This document shows, one piece after another, positions 1 through 9,925 of a stretch of 9,925 nt of DNA (position 1 is the first letter of the stretch; each line of letters starts with the position of its first letter). The stretch spans positions 1 through 9,925 of IMG/VR virus record IMGVR_UViG_2671180338_000006; one strand, written 5' to 3'. Under the pieces are notes generated by a model. The model was not told the origin of the DNA. It saw only the letters and a list, made by a program, of their open reading frames with translations, and searched no databases. Made by a program: the position numbers and the translations under genes. Origin of the DNA: a virus (Duplodnaviria > Heunggongvirae > Uroviricota > Caudoviricetes).

Positions 1-27
1 CGGTTAATTTATTCAGGGGAAGGCTGT

Positions 28-231
28 ATGGGAAAAGGTGGCGGTAAGGCACACACGCCTCGTGAGGCGAAGGATAATCTCAAATCCACGCAGATGATGA
101 GCGTGATTGATGCGATTGGTGAGGGACTGATAGAAGGTCCGGTGAAGGGACTGCAGAGTATCCTGGTGAACAAAACCCCGCTGACGGACACGGACGGTAA
201 TCCCGTGATACACGGTGTGACGGCGGTCTGA
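28..231 (+). CDS. J: J fragment 1 (N-terminal 67 codons, ends at in-frame TGA)
   Basis: ORF 28..231; the same frame continues to match gpJ immediately after the TGA (RAGEQEQTPPEGFESSG from 232). Confidence 0.6.
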   Translation: MGKGGGKAHTPREAKDNLKSTQMMSVIDAIGEGLIEGPVKGLQSILVNKTPLTDTDGNPVIHGVTAV

Positions 232-300
232 CGCGCCGGGGAGCAGGAGCAGACACCACCGGAAGGCTTTGAGTCCTCCGGTGCTGAAACCGGACTGGGC

Positions 301-2640
<2,340 letters not shown>

Positions 2641-3698
2641 GATAGGGAAAACCCATCTGGCTCAGGAGCTGTGGACGCAGATTGATAACGGTCAGCTTGC
2701 GCCTGACCTGGCTGAAATCAGGACGTCCATTACGGATGTCAGCAATGAAATCACGCAGACTGTCAATAAGAAACTGAAAGACCAGAGTGCGGCAATCCAG
2801 CAGATACAGAAGGTTCAGGTTGATACAAATAATAACCTGAACAGCATGTGGGCTGTGAAGCTGCAGCAGATGCAGGACGGACGCCTTTATATCGCGGGTA
2901 TTGGTGCCGGTATTGAGAACACCCCTGACGGCATGCAGAGTCAGGTGCTGCTGGCGGCGGACAGGATTGCGATGGTTAATCCTGCGAATGGCAACACAAA
3001 ACCGATGTTTGTTGGTCAGGGCGATCAGATATTCATGAACGACGTGTTCCTGAAACGCCTGACGGCCCCCACCATTACCAGCGGTGGAAATCCATCGGCA
3101 TTTTCCCTGACTCCGGACGGAAAGCTGACCGCTAAAAATGCGGATATCAGTGGCAGTGTGAATGCGAACGCCGGGACGCTCAACAATGTCACGGTAAATG
3201 AAAACTGTACGATTAAGGGCATGCTGGAGGCGACTCAGGTCAGAGGTGACTTCGTTAAAGCTGTATCCAAATCATTTCCGAAACAGGCTGGTACGTGGGG
3301 TAACACGGAAACACCAAACGGGACGGTTACAGTCACCATAAGCGATGATCATAACTTTGACCGCCAGATTATTATTCCGCCCATTATTTTTAACGGTATA
3401 GCGTATGACGATCCGGGGAGCGGAAATAACCCAGGAGGCACGCGATACACGGGTTATGGTTTTGAAGTTCGCAAAAACGGCGTATTAATCGCATCCAGAG
3501 AAACTAAAGGTGCCATTCCCGGTAGTTACAGTGCAGTTATTGATATGCCTAGTGGTGGTGGTAGCGTCACTCTGGAGTTTAAGATTTTCCAGAAAGGCAA
3601 TCAGGGGGCAGGCAATATCACCGACTGTACGGTGATTGTGACCAAAAAAGCGGCTTCCGGCATCAGTATTCGTTGAAATATTTATAACCCCAATAAAT

Positions 3699-3722
3699 GG
3701 CGTCAGGAATGACGCCTTTTTT
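3699..3722 (+). terminator. Rho-independent terminator downstream of J (copy 1)
   Basis: Stem ggcgtca, loop ggaa, stem tgacgcc, then tttttt. Confidence 0.7.
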
Positions 3723-3746
3723 ATTGCAGAAAAGCGAGAGGTAATT

Positions 3747-4751
3747 ATGCGTAAAGTTTGTGCAGCCATTTTGTCCGCAGCCATTTGCCTGGCCGTATCC
3801 GGTGCGCCTGCATGGGCGTCTGAACATCAGTCCACGCTGAGCGCGGGGTATCTTCATGCCCGGACCAACGTTCCCGGCAGTGATGATCTGAACGGGATTA
3901 ACGTGAAATACCGTTATGAGTTTACGGANCTGAACAGCATGTGGGCTGTGAAGCTGCAACAGATGAAGGACGGACGCCTTTATATTGCGGGTATCGGTGC
4001 CGGTATTGAGAATACGCCAGCAGGAATGCAGAGTCAGGTGCTGCTGGCGGCAGACAGGATTGCGATGATTAATCCTGCGAATGGCAACACAAAGCCGATG
4101 TTTGTTGGTCAGGGCGATCAGATATTCATGAACGACGTGTTCCTGAAACGCCTGACGGCTCCCACCATTACCAGCGGCGGTAATCCTCCGGCATTTTCCC
4201 TGACACCGGACGGAAAACTGACCGCTAAAAATGCAGATATCAGTGGCAGTGTGAATGCGAACGCCGGGACGCTCAACAATGTCACAATTAATGAGAACTG
4301 TCAGATTAAGGGGAAACTGTCAGCCAACCAGATTGAAGGCGATATAGTCAAAACAGTGGGTAAGGCTTTTCCGCGGGACTCCCGGGCACCGGAGCGGTGG
4401 CCATCAGGGACCATTACCGTCAGGATTTATGACGATCAGCCTTTTGACAGGCAAATTGTTATTCCGGCGGTGGCATTCAGCGGCGCTAAACATGAGCGGG
4501 AGAATAACGATATTTATTCGTCATGCCGCCTGATAGTACGGAAAAACGGTGCTGAAATTTATAACCGTACCGCGCTGGATAATACGCTGATTTACAGTGG
4601 TGTTATTGATATGCCAGCTGGTCGCGGCCACATGACGCTGGAGTTTTCGGTGTCAGCATGGCTGGTGAATAACTGGTATCCCACAGCAAGTATCAGCGAT
4701 TTGCTGGTTGTGGTGATGAAGAAAGCCACCGCAGGCATCAGTATCAGCTGA
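3747..4751 (+). CDS. In-frame fusion ORF: lom 5' fragment (3747-3928, signal peptide plus ~35 residues) joined across N3929 to a second J C-terminal receptor-binding module (3930-4751, allele 2)
   Basis: ORF 3747..4751 (334 aa) starts [28 protein letters not shown]... identical in style to lom at 4819, then after EFT-X continues [25 protein letters not shown]...[45 protein letters not shown]... ending [10 protein letters not shown], which is J C-terminal sequence. May be an assembly chimera. Confidence 0.5.
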
Positions 4752-4770
4752 ATTTTATAACCCATATACG

Positions 4771-4794
4771 GGCGCCAGAAATGGCGCCTTTTTT
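4771..4794 (+). terminator. Rho-independent terminator downstream of the second J module
   Basis: Stem ggcgcca, loop gaaa, stem tggcgcc, then tttttt; paralogous to 3699-3722 with compensatory stem changes. Confidence 0.7.
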
Positions 4795-4818
4795 ATTGCA
4801 GAAAAGCGAGAGGTAATT

Positions 4819-5418
4819 ATGCGTAAAGTTTGTGCAGCCATTTTGTCCGCAGCCATCTGTCTGTCCGTATCCGGTGCGCCTGCATGGGCGTCTGAACATC
4901 AGTCCACACTGAGCGCGGGGTATCTTCATGCCCGTACGAACGCTCCCGGCAGCGATAATCTGAACGGGATTAACGTGAAATACCGTTATGAGTTTACGGA
5001 CGCGCTGGGGCTGATTACGTCCTTCAGTTATGCCAATGCTGAGGATGAGCAAAAAACGCACTACAGCGATACCCGCTGGCATGAAGATTCCGTGCGTAAC
5101 CGCTGGTTCAGCGTGATGGCGGGGCCGTCTGTACGCGTGAATGAATGGTTCAGCGCGTATGCGATGGTGGGTGTGGCTTACAGCCGTGTGTCGACTTTCT
5201 CCGGGGATTATCTCCGCGTAACTGACAACAAGGGGAAAACGCACGATGTGCTGACCGGAAGTGATGACGGTCGCCACAGCAACACGTCTCTGGCGTGGGG
5301 GGCTGGCGTGCAGTTTAACCCGACCGAATCCGTGACCATTGACCTTGCTTATGAAGGTTCCGGTAGTGGTGACTGGCGAACGGATGCATTTATTGTTGGT
5401 ATCGGATACCGTATCTGA
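4819..5418 (+). CDS. lom: Lom-family outer-membrane protein (Ail/Lom/PagC/OmpX-type small beta-barrel), full length
   Basis: ORF 4819..5418 (199 aa). Signal peptide [24 protein letters not shown] with AWA-S cleavage motif; body ([78 protein letters not shown]) matches lambda Lom from memory. gagagg RBS 8 nt upstream of ATG. Position between J and stf as in lambda. Confidence 0.9.
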   Translation: MRKVCAAILSAAICLSVSGAPAWASEHQSTLSAGYLHARTNAPGSDNLNGINVKYRYEFTDALGLITSFSYANAEDEQKTHYSDTRWHEDSVRNRWFSVMAGPSVRVNEWFSAYAMVGVAYSRVSTFSGDYLRVTDNKGKTHDVLTGSDDGRHSNTSLAWGAGVQFNPTESVTIDLAYEGSGSGDWRTDAFIVGIGYRI

Positions 5419-5522
5419 CAACAGACGCCGATTTATCTTCTGTAAATATTGTTATGATACGCAGGTTCATCCACCTTATGGGGTGAACTGCGTTTGAGGA
5501 AACGTAAAGTTACACTGTCCTG

Positions 5523-5557
5523 AAGCCCGTGGCGTCACTGCTGCGGGCTTTTTTTAT
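5523..5557 (+). terminator. Rho-independent terminator downstream of lom, just upstream of stf
   Basis: Stem aagcccg (5523-5529), 14-nt loop, stem cgggctt (5544-5550), running into a T run to 5557. Confidence 0.7.
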
Positions 5558-5569
5558 TGGTGGAAAAGT

Positions 5570-8500
5570 ATGACAGTAAAAATTTCTGGCGTGCTTAAAG
5601 ATGGCACAGGAAAACCAGTACAGAACTGCACCATTGTGCTGAAGGCCAGACGAACCAGCAGCACGATGGTGGTGAACACGGTGGCCTCTGAAAATCCGGA
5701 TGAAGCCGGACGTTACAGCATGGATGTTGAGCATGGTCAGTACAGCGTCACCCTGCTGGTTGAAGGTTTTCCGCCTTCACATGCCGGGACCATTACCGTC
5801 TATGAAGGTTCCAGACCAGGTACGCTGAATGATTTTCTCGGTGCCATGACGGAGGATGATGTCCGACCGGAGGCACTGCGCCGCTTTGAGCAGATGGTGG
5901 AAGAGGTGTCACGTAACGCCTCCGCGGTTGCACAGAATACGGCAGCCGCGAAAAAATCAGCCAGCGAGGCGGCAACTCATGCAACCGATGCTGCAGCCTC
6001 AGCACGTGCCGCCAGCACGTCAGCCGGACAGGCCGCGTCGTCGGCTCAGTCAGCGTCTTCCAGCGCAGGAACGGCATCGACAAAGGCCCGTGAAGCAGCA
6101 AAAAGTGCTGCTGCAGAGTCATCAAAAAGCGCGGCAGCTACCAGCGCCAGTGCCGCGAAAACGTCAGAAACGAATGCCGCAGCATCACAAAAATCGGCAG
6201 CCACTTCTGCATCCACAGCGACCACGAAGGCGTCAGAAGCTGCCACCTCGGCACGGGGTGCGGCGGCCTCAAAAGAGGCAGCGAAATCTTCAGAAACGAA
6301 TGCATCATCAAGTGCCAGTAGTGCAGCTTCCTCGGCAACGGCGGCAGGAAATTCCGCGAAGGCGGCAAAAACGTCCGAGACGAACGCTAAGTCTTCTGAA
6401 ACAGCAGCGGGACAGAGCGCCTCAGCTGCGGCAGGTTCAAAAACAGCGGCTGCATTATCTGCCAGTGCCGCGTCAACAAGTGCCGGGCAGGCCTCAGCCA
6501 GTGCCACCGCCGCCGGAAAATCGGCAGAAAGCGCCGCATCATCCGCTTCAACAGCCACAACGAAGGCTGGCGAAGCCACTGAGCAGGCCACGGCAGCAGC
6601 GAGGTCAGCTTCCGCAGCGAAGACATCCGAAACGAACGCGAAAGCGTCGGAAACCCGTGCAGAATCCTCAAAAACGGCTGCCGCATCGTCCGCCAGTTCG
6701 GCGGCGTCATCGGCATCATCGGCGTCTGCTTCAAAAGATGAGGCGACCAGACAGGCGTCAGCAGCGAAGGGCAGCGCCACGACGGCATCCACGAAGGCGA
6801 CAGAGGCTGCTGGTAGTGCGACGGCAGCAGCTCAGAGCAAAAGTACGGCGGAATCTGCAGCAACGCGCGCTGAGACAGCGGCAAAACGGGCAGAGGATAT
6901 TGCATCCGCCGTGGCGCTGGAGGATGCGAGCACGACGAAAAAGGGGATAGTACAGCTCAGTAGTGCGACTAACAGCACTTCCGAGTCACTGGCGGCAACA
7001 CCAAAAGCCGTTAAGGCCGCGTATGACCTGGCTAACGGGAAATACACCGCACAGGATGCAACGACAGCACAGAAAGGGATAATCCAGCTAAGCAGCGCGA
7101 CCAACAGCACGTCTGAAACGCTGGCGGCAACGCCAAAGGCAGTAAAAGCAGCCAATGACAATGCTGAGAAACGTCTGCAGAAAGATCAGAACGGTGCGGA
7201 TATCCCTGGCAAAGACACCTTTACGAAAAATATTGGTGCCTGCCGTGCCTTCGGTGGGTCAGTAAGCACAACAACAGGAAACTGGACGACTGCACAGTTT
7301 ATCGAGTGGCTGGATTCTCAGGGAGCATTTAACCATCCATACTGGATGTGCAAGGGTTCCTGGTCTTATGGCAATAATAAAATCATTACTGATACTGGCT
7401 GCGGTAATATTCATCTCGCCGGAGCTGTCATTGAAGTAATGGGGATAAAGTCAGCGATGACGATCCGCATTACCACTCCGACCACATCCAGCGGTGGCGG
7501 AACAACCAACGCCCAGTTTACCTATATTAATCACGGAACAGATTATTCACCTGGCTGGCGAAGGGACTATAACTCCAGAAATAAGCCAACGGCATCAGAG
7601 ATCGGGGCGCTACCGTCAGGTGGAACAGCAGTATCATCAGTTAATCTGGCTTCAAAAGGTCGGGTAGCCGCGCTGACAGACAATACGCAGGGGGCAGCAG
7701 GTCTTGAGTTATACGAGGTGTATAACAACGGATATCCAACAGCGTATGGAAATATCATTCACCTGAAAGGGATGACAGCCGTTGGCGAAGGTGAGTTACT
7801 CATCGGCTGGAGTGGTACAAGCGGTGCTCATGCTCCGGCATTTATTCGTTCACGACGGGATACGACCGACGCAAACTGGTCGCCGTGGGCGCAGCTTTAC
7901 ACCTCGGCTCATCCTCCTGCAGAGTTTTATCCAGTCGGTGCACCAATCCCGTGGCCATCAGATACCGTTCCGTCTGGTTATGCCCTGATGCAGGGGCAGA
8001 CTTTTGACAAATCTGCTTACCCGAAACTTGCAGCCGCTTATCCGTCAGGCGTGATCCCTGATATGCGTGGCTGGACGATTAAGGGCAAGCCCGCCAGTGG
8101 TCGTGCCGTATTGTCTCAGGAACAGGATGGCATTAAATCGCACACCCACAGCGCCAGCGCATCCAGTACGGATTTGGGGACGAAAACCACATCGTCGTTT
8201 GATTACGGCACTAAATCCACGAATAACACCGGGGCGCATACGCACAGTCTGAGCGGCTCTACAAGTTCAGCTGGGGCCCACCAACATAGTCAGACTGGGC
8301 CCAGAACGAATAGCGGGAGTCAACCTACTGGAATGTTTCCGGCAGGGAGTACTCAAGTTAGCGGGACTAATCAGGTTGGTATCAGTGGCTCATTAACCAG
8401 TGGCACCTCCCAATGGGTAGGTAAATCATCTTCAGAAGGAAACCATACACACTCACTGTCCGGCACAGCAGCATCTGCGGGTGCACACGCGCATACTGTC

Positions 8501-8629
8501 GGTATTGGTGCTCATACGCACTCTGTTGCGATTGGTTCACATGGACACACCATCACCGTTAACGCTGCTGGTAACGCGGAAAACACCGTCAAAAACATCG
8601 CATTTAACTATATTGTGAGGCTCGCATAA
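5570..8629 (+). CDS. stf: Side tail fibre protein Stf (lambda Stf / T4 gp37-like), intact 1019 aa
   Basis: N-terminus [28 protein letters not shown]...[35 protein letters not shown] and C-terminus ...[31 protein letters not shown] match lambda Stf as recalled; Ala/Ser-rich shaft; HxH-rich distal tip. Stop TAA overlaps the tfa ATG (TAATG). Confidence 0.9.
5900..6900 (+). repeat. Low-complexity Ala/Ser/Thr-rich shaft region of Stf with recurring AKTSETNA-type motifs
   Basis: Motif K(T/S)SETNA occurs at least four times (about 6160, 6285, 6365-6390, 6620). The GC-rich codon periodicity creates long stop-free shadow ORFs in other frames and on the opposite strand. Confidence 0.8.
6938..7160 (+). 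repeat. Two tandem ~30-residue tail-fibre repeats in Stf (KGI[V/I][11 protein letters not shown][S/T][11 protein letters not shown])
   Basis: Copies at about 6938-7028 and 7070-7160, period about 132 nt; near-identical protein, many synonymous nucleotide differences. Confidence 0.8.
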
Positions 8630-9145
8630 TGGCATTCAGAATGAGTGAACAAGCACGGACCATAAAAATTTATAACCTGCTGGCCGGAACTAATGAATTT
8701 ATTGGTGAAGGTGACGCATATATTCCGCCTCATACAGGTCTGCCTGCAAACATCGTGGCATCTCGTTGAAGATCATCGGGGTAAAACGGTTTATGACGTG
8801 GCTTCCGGCGACGCGTTATTTATTTCTGAACTCGGCTCATTACCGGAAAATGTCACCTGGTTATCCCCGGAAGGGGAGTTTCAGAAGTGGAACGGCACAG
8901 CCTGGGTGAAGGATACGGAAGCAGAAAAACTGTTCCGGATCCGGGAGGCGGAAGAAACAAAAAACAGCCTGATGCAGGTAGCCAGTGAGCATATAGCGCC
9001 GCTTCAGGATGCTGTGGATCTGGAGATCGCAACGGAGAAAGAAACCTTGTTGCTGGAAGCCTGGAAAAAGTATCGGGTGTTGCTGAACCGTGTTGATACA
9101 TCAACTGCACCGGATATTGAATGGCCAGTAGCACCTATAGGGTAA
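8629..9145 (+). pseudogene. tfa: Tail fibre assembly protein Tfa (lambda Tfa family), frame-broken by an internal deletion
   Basis: From ATG 8629: [41 protein letters not shown] then out-of-frame residues and TGA at 8767-8769. Tfa similarity resumes in the +1 frame at 8753 ([28 protein letters not shown]...[16 protein letters not shown], stop 9143-9145). About 22 codons of lambda Tfa between GLPAN and SWHLVED are missing. Confidence 0.85.
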
Positions 9146-9894
9146 ATTCGTAATGATTACCTAAATACGTTATTCTTTTGTTAAAAAAGTGATTTTGCTA
9201 TAGGTAGGGAGTATGTTCTTGGATTAAGAATAAAAAATCGCCATGAAAGAGCTTCATGGCGAGTACATAAACGTACAAAATGTGATGAAAGTAGAGTGGC
9301 GTAAGCCACTATATTAAGATATGACAATAGCGAAGAAAAGTAAATAACATTTTATGGACGTTTAATTGTTAATTATAAAAACTAGAGTGCCCGATATTGT
9401 TTATCTTGCTTTAAAATAATGTACTCAAACCAAATTTTTGAGCTAAAAGCTCAAATAATATAAATGCAATAATAATGTTTAATAAGACAATTAGCTTGCT
9501 TTGTATTTTCATTTCGGAATACTGTTAAGTAACTTTGATGACCCTAACAATAGATCGGAATTTTCTTAGAGTCAATGGTCACTGTTTTTGCTTGCAAAGC
9601 AAATGTTTTGGTGGTTATAAGTTGTCTTAATATAGTCACGCATGCAACTTGTTCCATGCGGAGATTAAAGATTGGAATATAACGCGAAGATGGAATTAAA
9701 TTACATTTGCAATAATCAATTTATTATTACTCAATAATTACCGATATTATTATTGTAAATTAATCATTAGAGTGCAAAAAGAAATGTAACGGCAAAATAA
9801 GAGGACGATAGCTGAGAAAAAAGCGTGCTTTCCCAATCTGGGGCAAATCACGTCTGAATGACACCTGAAAACAGGTGGTAGCCTCAAGAAGGCT
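9146..9894. other. AT-rich region with no ORF of 60 aa or more on either strand; possible degraded cargo/moron locus or regulatory region
   Basis: Abrupt compositional shift from the GC-richer tail genes; several short hairpins (ccatgaa-agagc-ttcatgg at 9241-9259; ttgctt-gca-aagcaa about 9586-9600; cgcatg-N10-catgcg at 9639-9660). Confidence 0.5.
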
Positions 9895-9925
9895 GGTGAT
9901 GCTGCCAACTTACTGATTTAGTGTA
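9895..9925 (+). mobile_element. IS1 terminal inverted repeat (first 31 bp of IS1, truncated by the window edge)
   Basis: ggtgatgctgccaacttactgatttagtgta matches the canonical IS1 left end as I recall it (GGTGATGCTGCCAACTTACTGATTTAGTGTATGATGGTG...). Confidence 0.8.

Follow-up and report, generated by a model that had tools for sequence, protein, structure and literature searches.

An apparent tandem J receptor-binding module and Lom-J fusion in a Shigella sonnei prophage record, very probably produced by assembly

Invertible tail-fibre segments such as those of Mu (Gin/G), P1 (Cin/C) and e14 (Pin) require a site-specific invertase and inverted crossover sites, and diversity-generating retroelements require a reverse transcriptase together with template and variable repeats. 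Errors of assembly at repeated sequence are also described—the paper on the Sanger pipeline states that SSPACE and GapFiller, both of them greedy, can make false joins, and covers 299 S. sonnei assemblies averaging 405 contigs (PMC5320598), and gap filling has been reported to stall in repeats (PMC3446322). Here, we analyse a stretch of 9,925 bp (the window), which is the entire record CXBJ01000159.1 of the draft Shigella sonnei assembly GCA_001257935.1, and conclude, at a probability of roughly 0.96, that its apparent tandem J module and lom fusion are an assembly artefact in which two related prophages were strung together across Ns.

The only non-ACGT letters in the window are a run of 44 Ns at 2462-2505 and a lone N at 3929, which split it into three pieces (1-2461, 2506-3928 and 3930-9925), and collinearity with N-free relatives breaks exactly twice, matching these two N runs to the base. 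The first piece (1-2461) holds the 5' two-thirds of gene J from a prophage that we call X. The second, assigned to another prophage, Y, comprises a J 3' part with its own receptor-binding domain (2506-3676, with Pfam and PDB matches), a terminator-like hairpin (3699-3716), and lom codons 1-61 (3747-3928); the top protein matches for its J fragment are labelled Shigella sonnei. The third contains the 3' part of the prophage X J with an X-type receptor-binding domain (3930-4751), a terminator-like hairpin (4770-4789), a complete lom of the Ail/Lom family (4819-5418, 199 aa), stf, tfa, and flanking sequence. All of these features lie on the plus strand, the two gaps having no strand. Beyond the 44-N gap, the sequence resumes 135 nt further back in J, and at the second joint it passes from lom nt 182 through the N into J 'CTGAACAGCATGTGG'.

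A reading of the letters alone (the sequence-only reading) had described a tandem repeat with a single N at its joint, and 2837-3928 does recur at 3930-5000: the J parts (2837-3136 and 3930-4229) are 93% identical and the terminator-lom parts (3680-3928 and 4752-5000) 92% identical, with a 55-nt patch at 76% as the sole similarity between the two J distal domains. Its unit of about 1.1 kb is indeed present twice, but the copies are unequal in length: the J parts start 1093 nt apart, the terminator-lom parts 1072 nt apart. It also ascribed the same signature to the 44-N gap, and 2327-2461 recurs across that gap at 2506-2640 with 89% identity. The naming of the parts as J receptor-binding modules, terminators, and lom agrees with Pfam, PDB, and the predicted hairpins. 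Both distal modules clear the PF12421 gathering score of 26.2, at 91.4 and 134.5 bits, and can be aligned over their full length with lambda J residues 959-1131 (PDB 8iyk), at E 5e-44 for the X-type module and E 7e-33 for that of the second piece; the best PDB match of the X-type module is 9wca, 'A8 gpJ' (E 9e-68). Likewise, the reported in-frame passage from lom codons 1-61 into a J module was reproduced—ORF 3747-4751 is open, reading Lom residues 1-60, an X at residue 61, and then J sequence over 334 aa, and Pfam places Ail_Lom at 1-61 followed by Phage_Tail_Tip and Ig_GpJ_C. The lom fragment covers only positions 1-61 of the PF06316 profile, leaving the barrel incomplete, whereas the downstream lom spans positions 1-198 of 199 (416 bits), a full-length match. 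The 334-aa ORF is a by-product of pieces that happen to abut in frame.

The ordinary form of prophage X is found in four independent N-free assemblies (L003-L006), which encode a 1,019-aa Stf identical to that of the window and each carry J, terminator, and lom once only, in an ordinary J-lom-stf prophage; these draft sisters served as the comparison in place of a closed genome of the same lineage. Window positions 1-2461 align without gaps to 5704-8164 of these assemblies at 99.6-99.7% identity, and positions 3930-9925 align from 8361 at 99.98% with a single mismatch, leaving 196 bp between them. The same 196-bp spacing occurs in several complete E. coli genomes, among them UID2309220041, FDAARGOS_1255, ECAMP047, and THO-006. 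In a further N-free contig, L008, J runs directly into the head of the third piece. The accession prefix of L008, CXBQ, resembles the source prefix CXBJ. No closed E. coli genome of the collection contains the exact prophage of the window, the best reaching 94% coverage at 94% identity, and complete E. coli genomes with a match have a median of 2-3 matching places each, with up to 14.

The second piece has a different home. It aligns to 10334-11756 of the S. sonnei contig L012 at 99.5% identity (7 mismatches, no gaps), at a locus belonging to a different prophage whose own tape-measure, L, K, and I genes are 78-82% identical to those of X; there, J, terminator, and lom are unbroken, and lom goes on beyond codon 61. 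The piece also matches, at 98% identity, the normal J-lom of E. coli LD93-1 and that of NCTC9967. This separate Y locus is documented in an S. sonnei assembly other than the source, within a species that is clonal. The single J-terminator-lom arrangement in the sisters, taken together with L012, places the two copies computationally in two separate prophages, and the scaffolding chimera to which the sequence-only reading gave at least even odds is now almost completely supported.

Allele phase points the same way. All 50 of the 50 J sites that discriminate X from Y carry either the X or the Y allele in the window, and overlapping pieces hold opposite alleles throughout, with a reciprocal switch of phase: Y/X at 4 sites and then X/Y at 11. 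The tail of the first piece (2192-2366) has prophage-Y alleles, the second piece has X alleles at 2536-2545 and 2761-2797, and the switches fall within stretches common to X and Y. The 196-bp bridging segment is present in a single copy as an X/Y mosaic; within the second piece it is X sequence except at two sites, and being nearly X but mosaic it favours a collapsed consensus over a pure Y contig. Collapse of a repeat of identical sequence was rejected for the bridge, given the two deviating sites and the mosaic.

The record most probably arose by the following sequence of events. The S. sonnei genome would carry at least two paralogous lambdoid prophage remnants, X and Y, whose J and lom share exact stretches of 30-180 bp, among them one of 107 bp (182 bp in the consensus of this isolate). 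A short-read assembler would fail to thread reads through these common stretches, yielding three pieces, which a read-pair scaffolder would then link via the common sequence and set end to end, placing 44 N at the first joint and 1 N at the second. In true coordinates neighbouring pieces would overlap, by 135 bp in one case and about 1,090 bp in the other, and these overlaps would mimic a tandem duplication because they come from two paralogues of the same segment. The boundaries, origins, and allele phase of the pieces are directly observed; the software was most likely a Velvet + SSPACE + GapFiller pipeline, in which the nucleotide-by-nucleotide extension of GapFiller would stall where two paralogues vote about equally.

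The inner ends of the pieces bear on this choice of software. The second piece opens with a 30-nt exact match to the first and, following 43 shared nt, stops a single base short of the point in lom where X and Y next differ, and the third starts one base past an X/Y difference in J, with 29 shared nt following; three of the four inner ends thus have exact shared runs (30, 43, and 29 nt). The idea that every end bears a pure k = 31 de Bruijn signature was considered and rejected, as it fits the 30 nt and the 29 nt plus N but fails at the 43-nt end and at the end of the first piece, and the GapFiller stop rule accounts better than k = 31 for both flanks of the single N. That N falls on an X/Y-discriminating position both in lom (nt 183) and in J. 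It had been thought to mask a probable c; in parental phase, however, the neighbouring base is T on each side (ACGGAT in the prophage-Y lom and AATAATCTGAAC in the prophage-X J), and the N is a gap placeholder hiding no c. The stop of the first piece at 2461, 2 nt past a discriminating site, and the size of the 44-N run lie outside a simple rule of X/Y ambiguity. A third J paralogue may be involved, as hinted by the protein P0001, an S. sonnei 'J' of 608 aa whose sequence restarts internally.

An artefact could also have been made by reference-guided ordering of contigs and their concatenation with Ns, instead of read-pair scaffolding and gap filling, and on one reference J-lom the positions of all three pieces do overlap, which is what an ordering tool would set side by side. 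We regard this variant as unlikely: such tools usually add gaps of fixed length, whereas here there are 44 Ns and 1 N; pieces that stop at an ambiguous base once 29 or more nt are shared suit the GapFiller algorithm; and a published scaffolder and gap-filler pipeline made hundreds of S. sonnei assemblies.

A biological origin would require a tandem specific to this isolate, in which a Y segment comprising the 3' part of J, the terminator, and the 5' part of lom recombined, illegitimately or homologously, into the X J and the assembler then failed at both joints. If true, the prophage would hold two alternative J tips and an ORF joining a Lom signal peptide to a J tip—a stored cassette for host range, or a decoy that is secreted. 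In favour of such a tandem, the lom and J frames agree and each module is a genuine gpJ C-terminal receptor-binding domain, but we consider it very improbable. Both new joints are the only N runs of the record, whereas a real joint would show sequenced bases; J-lom is single in sister isolates and in complete genomes; Y has a locus of its own; and duplication predicts neither the reciprocal allele swaps nor a single mosaic bridge of 196 bp. Moreover, comparison with the J of E. coli VR50 shows the X J to be a pseudogene already: its reading frame meets a TGA at 229-231 and has lost 22 nt near 1901, so that a host-range cassette would have no working tail to serve.

Searches for the joint elsewhere also speak against a real tandem. 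Window positions 3300-4600 were collinear in 0 of 5,426 complete E. coli genomes, where the best hit covered 81% as two non-collinear pieces within one 1,092-bp J-lom. The lom/J joint was likewise absent from 185,579 species-representative genomes, from IMG/VR, and from JGI metagenome contigs, as searched with junction patterns of 51 nt (genome and viral contigs) and of 27 nt with the N as wildcard (genome and metagenome contigs); a control of the pattern on the window established that an N in the target does get matched. With the joint nowhere else in these collections and one J-lom in the sisters, the stored cassette or exported J-tip decoy of the sequence-only reading finds no support. The window also offers no machinery for a rearrangement: it has no ORF for a recombinase, invertase, or reverse transcriptase, its other ORFs being J, lom, stf, and tfa, and the inverted repeats within 2000-5800 are all short, with arms of 17-23 nt that are 83-88% complementary, and do not flank the modules. 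With inverted repeats and enzymes both absent from the window, an invertible cassette or DGR-type switching was rejected. Least credible of all is that real bases of a correct and contiguous sequence were masked with N, whether on purpose or for technical reasons, for although some collections do write stretches as N, masking is one-for-one and keeps collinearity, whereas here the sequence jumps back 135 nt at one run and from lom nt 182 into J at the other.

The main value of recognising a scaffolding chimera here is quality control, in that the record holds false joins between paralogous prophages. Two phantoms are among the genes called on it, the "Lom-J" fusion of 334 aa and a J fragment of 389 aa; proteins of this kind find their way into databases, where they may be misread as fused domains, as duplications, or as innovations in host range. 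Many sister S. sonnei drafts built by the same route probably contain similar false joins. The signature by which such joins can be recognised is simple: Ns exactly at the boundaries of repeat units, opposite paralogue alleles in the overlaps, and stops at bases that discriminate the paralogues.

Set against known systems, the likeness to the Mu, P1, and e14 segments and to diversity-generating retroelements is only superficial, consisting of two receptor-binding ends side by side; here the copies are direct repeats with N between them, and the window has no such ORFs and no flanking inverted repeats. Both modules resemble the C-terminal receptor-binding domain of lambda gpJ (8iyk/8xcj; 9wca; PF12421) from end to end, but they are two divergent alleles, of which the X type is nearer to 'A8 gpJ'. 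The false joins made by SSPACE and GapFiller at paralogous repeats are alike in having N at the breaks, piece ends in sequence common to the paralogues, switches of phase, and extension halted by bases that tell the paralogues apart, although the 44-N length and the exact end of the first piece are not fully accounted for. Finally, from the multiple paralogous lambdoid prophages or remnants of Shigella and E. coli we find no difference at all: both parental arrangements have the ordinary lambda-type order of J, terminator, lom, stf, and tfa, and the window joins portions of two such prophages in a single scaffold.

Through its 1,019-aa Stf protein (5570-8629), the window was traced to record CXBJ01000159.1 of assembly GCA_001257935.1, all 9,925 bp of which it covers. 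Apart from 44 consecutive Ns at 2462-2505 and a single N at position 3929, it consists of A, C, G, and T. A repeat search recovered 2837-3136 again at 3930-4229 (93%) and 3680-3928 again at 4752-5000 (92%), with strongly diverged J distal domains between these repeats that have one 55-nt patch in common (76%). The 135 nt before the 44-N gap (2327-2461) also recur directly after it (2506-2640, 89%), bearing out an earlier suspicion that the same signature would be present there. From the repeats and N runs, the record therefore consists of three pieces (1: 1-2461; 2: 2506-3928; 3: 3930-9925). The ORF crossing the single N (3747-4751) is open: its product starts with Lom residues 1-60, has X where the N falls, and continues as J up to the J stop. 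Its Pfam domains are Ail_Lom (1-61), then Phage_Tail_Tip, then the receptor-binding domain of the gpJ C terminus. Terminator-like hairpins follow the J end in both piece 2 (3699-3716) and piece 3 (4770-4789). Thus, the tandem repeat, N joint, and in-frame ORF described by the sequence-only reading are all present in the window.

We nevertheless conclude, with a probability of about 0.96, that this repeat structure is a scaffolding chimera of two prophages and not a real feature—the alternative that the sequence-only reading had itself offered, now supported by collinearity with relatives, the separate origin of piece 2, allele phase, and the absence of the joint elsewhere. An identical Stf occurs in eight other contigs, including four (L003-L006) of ~16.5 kb that are N-free and come from four different assemblies. 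In all four of these sisters, window 1-2461 maps to 5704-8164 without gaps (99.6-99.7%) and 3930-9925 maps to 8361 onward (99.98%, one mismatch), such that pieces 1 and 3 lie 196 bp apart, and the gene order is a single J, a single terminator, a single lom, and then stf. The distance from J start to stf start is 1,272 bp longer in the window, a surplus of 1,093 + 179 that matches exactly the offset of each repeat across its N site. The 196-bp spacing recurs in complete E. coli with this prophage type (prophage X; UID2309220041, FDAARGOS_1255, ECAMP047, and THO-006), and in a further N-free contig (L008, accession prefix CXBQ, similar to CXBJ) J runs directly into the head of piece 3. Piece 2 matches the X loci at 94% in the conserved J part only, its distal domain being without any match.

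The nearest proteins to the J fragment of piece 2 carry the name Shigella sonnei, and the best match of the piece is an S. sonnei contig (L012, GCA_900159355.1; 99.5%, 7 mismatches, no gaps). There it forms part of a different lambdoid prophage (prophage Y), whose upstream tape-measure, M, L, K, I, and J 5' genes are 78-82% identical to those of X; downstream of the J stop lie the same terminator, a lom running on beyond codon 61, and a tail-fibre gene. The piece-2 type also occurs in complete E. coli (LD93-1 and NCTC9967; 98%), again within an ordinary J-lom-stfR-tfaQ-pinQ prophage. Because piece 2 has its own prophage locus, the units flanking the N at 3929, previously taken as two copies of a duplication, are the J-lom junctions of separate prophages Y and X, and the single J-lom of each in L012, L003-L006, and complete E. 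coli argues against a duplication.

Allele phase was followed at all 50 sites that separate X from Y in the conserved J part, with X defined by the four concordant sisters and Y by L012. The window always carries the X or the Y allele, never a third, and overlapping pieces carry opposite alleles at every site: in the overlap of pieces 1 and 2, the first four sites (2357-2366 in piece 1, 2536-2545 in piece 2) are Y and X, respectively, and the next eleven are X and Y; in that of pieces 2 and 3, all 27 are Y and X. Piece 1 has further Y alleles at 2192, 2207, and 2216, and the 196-bp bridge (2641-2836) is a single-copy Y-X-X-X-Y mosaic. Reciprocal phase switches within shared stretches and a collapsed mosaic bridge are the expected result of mis-threading two paralogues and not of a duplication. 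The last base of piece 2 is lom nt 182, which closes a stretch (nt 140-182) identical in X and Y before they differ at 183-184, and piece 3 starts one base past a J site with T in X and C in Y, its following 29 nt being common with Y. Approached from either side, the single N therefore lies on a base that tells the paralogues apart. The proposal that it masks a c is not supported, since on each side it drew on the other paralogue: the lom of Y goes on with T, and in the J of X a T precedes CTGAAC. The first 30 nt of piece 2 match piece 1 exactly.

GapFiller extends gap edges base by base, working with an overlap of 29 nt and a majority threshold of 0.7, and leaving gaps open in repeats with alternatives at equal ratio (PMC3446322). 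The paper on Sanger's high-throughput pipeline, which combines Velvet, SSPACE, and GapFiller, lists 299 public S. sonnei assemblies (mean 405 contigs) and warns that these greedy tools can produce false joins (PMC5320598). Gap-edge extension by GapFiller would have stalled where X and Y differ, yielding the stop points flanking 3929. These fit the rule, although we infer the software; the artefact verdict is independent of which software was used. Two details fall outside the rule, namely why piece 1 stops at 2461, 2 nt past a discriminating site, and why the gap has 44 Ns; a third J paralogue, of the kind seen in P0001 (below), may have contributed.

Other S. sonnei draft contigs of the J-lom-stf region contain N runs (146 N in L009, 21 N in L011, and 9860-10000 in L012) or end inside J or lom; in S. 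sonnei, assembly problems are systematic here. A database S. sonnei 'host specificity protein J' (P0001, 608 aa) has an internal restart after ...AFSLTP, joining a third J variant to an X-type C-terminus without an X residue; it is probably a similar misassembly closed without Ns, and suggests that phantom J proteins are recurrent in S. sonnei drafts. The record's last ~45 nt (about 9880-9925), which we take to resemble the terminal inverted repeat of IS1 (GGTGATGCTGCCAACTTACTGATTTAGTGTA), match at least 5,000 records of plasmids, frequently in more than one place; the contig ends within a multi-copy element, a typical Shigella contig break.

A real rearrangement private to this isolate is very improbable. 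The stretch 3300-4600 is collinear in none of 5,426 complete E. coli genomes, the best places giving 81% coverage as two non-collinear pieces within one 1,092-bp J-lom. The lom|J joint, searched with the N as wildcard in a pattern that does match the window itself, was not found in 185,579 species-representative genomes, IMG/VR, or JGI metagenome contigs. The stored host-range cassette, the biological reading proposed earlier, is rejected on the single J-lom of the sisters, the absence of the joint from these collections, broken X J and tfa genes, and a window in which neither an invertase nor a reverse transcriptase nor inverted repeats flanking the modules were found.

In gene J of prophage X (28-2461), comparison with E. 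coli VR50 shows TGG changed to in-frame TGA at 229-231 and a frame-shifting 22-nt deletion near 1901 (10 + 12 nt in the alignment). Both lesions are common to the four S. sonnei sister assemblies and are therefore real lineage features, not assembly errors; the gene is a pseudogene in this lineage. The tfa gene (8629-9145, break near 8752) is ~65 nt shorter than in VR50 and in S. sonnei L009 and L010, where the 193-aa protein is intact; the deletion, common to L003-L006, shifts the frame to leave a short 5' ORF and a 150-aa ORF (8693-9145). With J a pseudogene and tfa frameshifted, there would be no functional tail for a stored cassette to act on. Elsewhere in the region, the N-terminal half of Stf includes a degenerate Ala/Ser/Lys-rich repeat (5945-6688) with eight irregularly spaced 33-nt copies (64-100% identity). 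Downstream of tfa, 9150-9870 is AT-rich (~700 bp) with no long ORF, and the matching stretch in E. coli OSUCMP42NDM is unannotated, between tfa and yodB/zinT.

The called 334-aa Lom-J fusion and 389-aa J fragment are phantom proteins, and the value of the case is as a warning. What is really present is a pair of J-terminator-lom junctions of the ordinary lambda type. Their distal modules, which represent two divergent alleles, both score above the PF12421 cut-off and align to lambda J 959-1131 (PDB 8iyk) and to 9wca; each is a true homologue of the receptor-binding domain of lambda gpJ.
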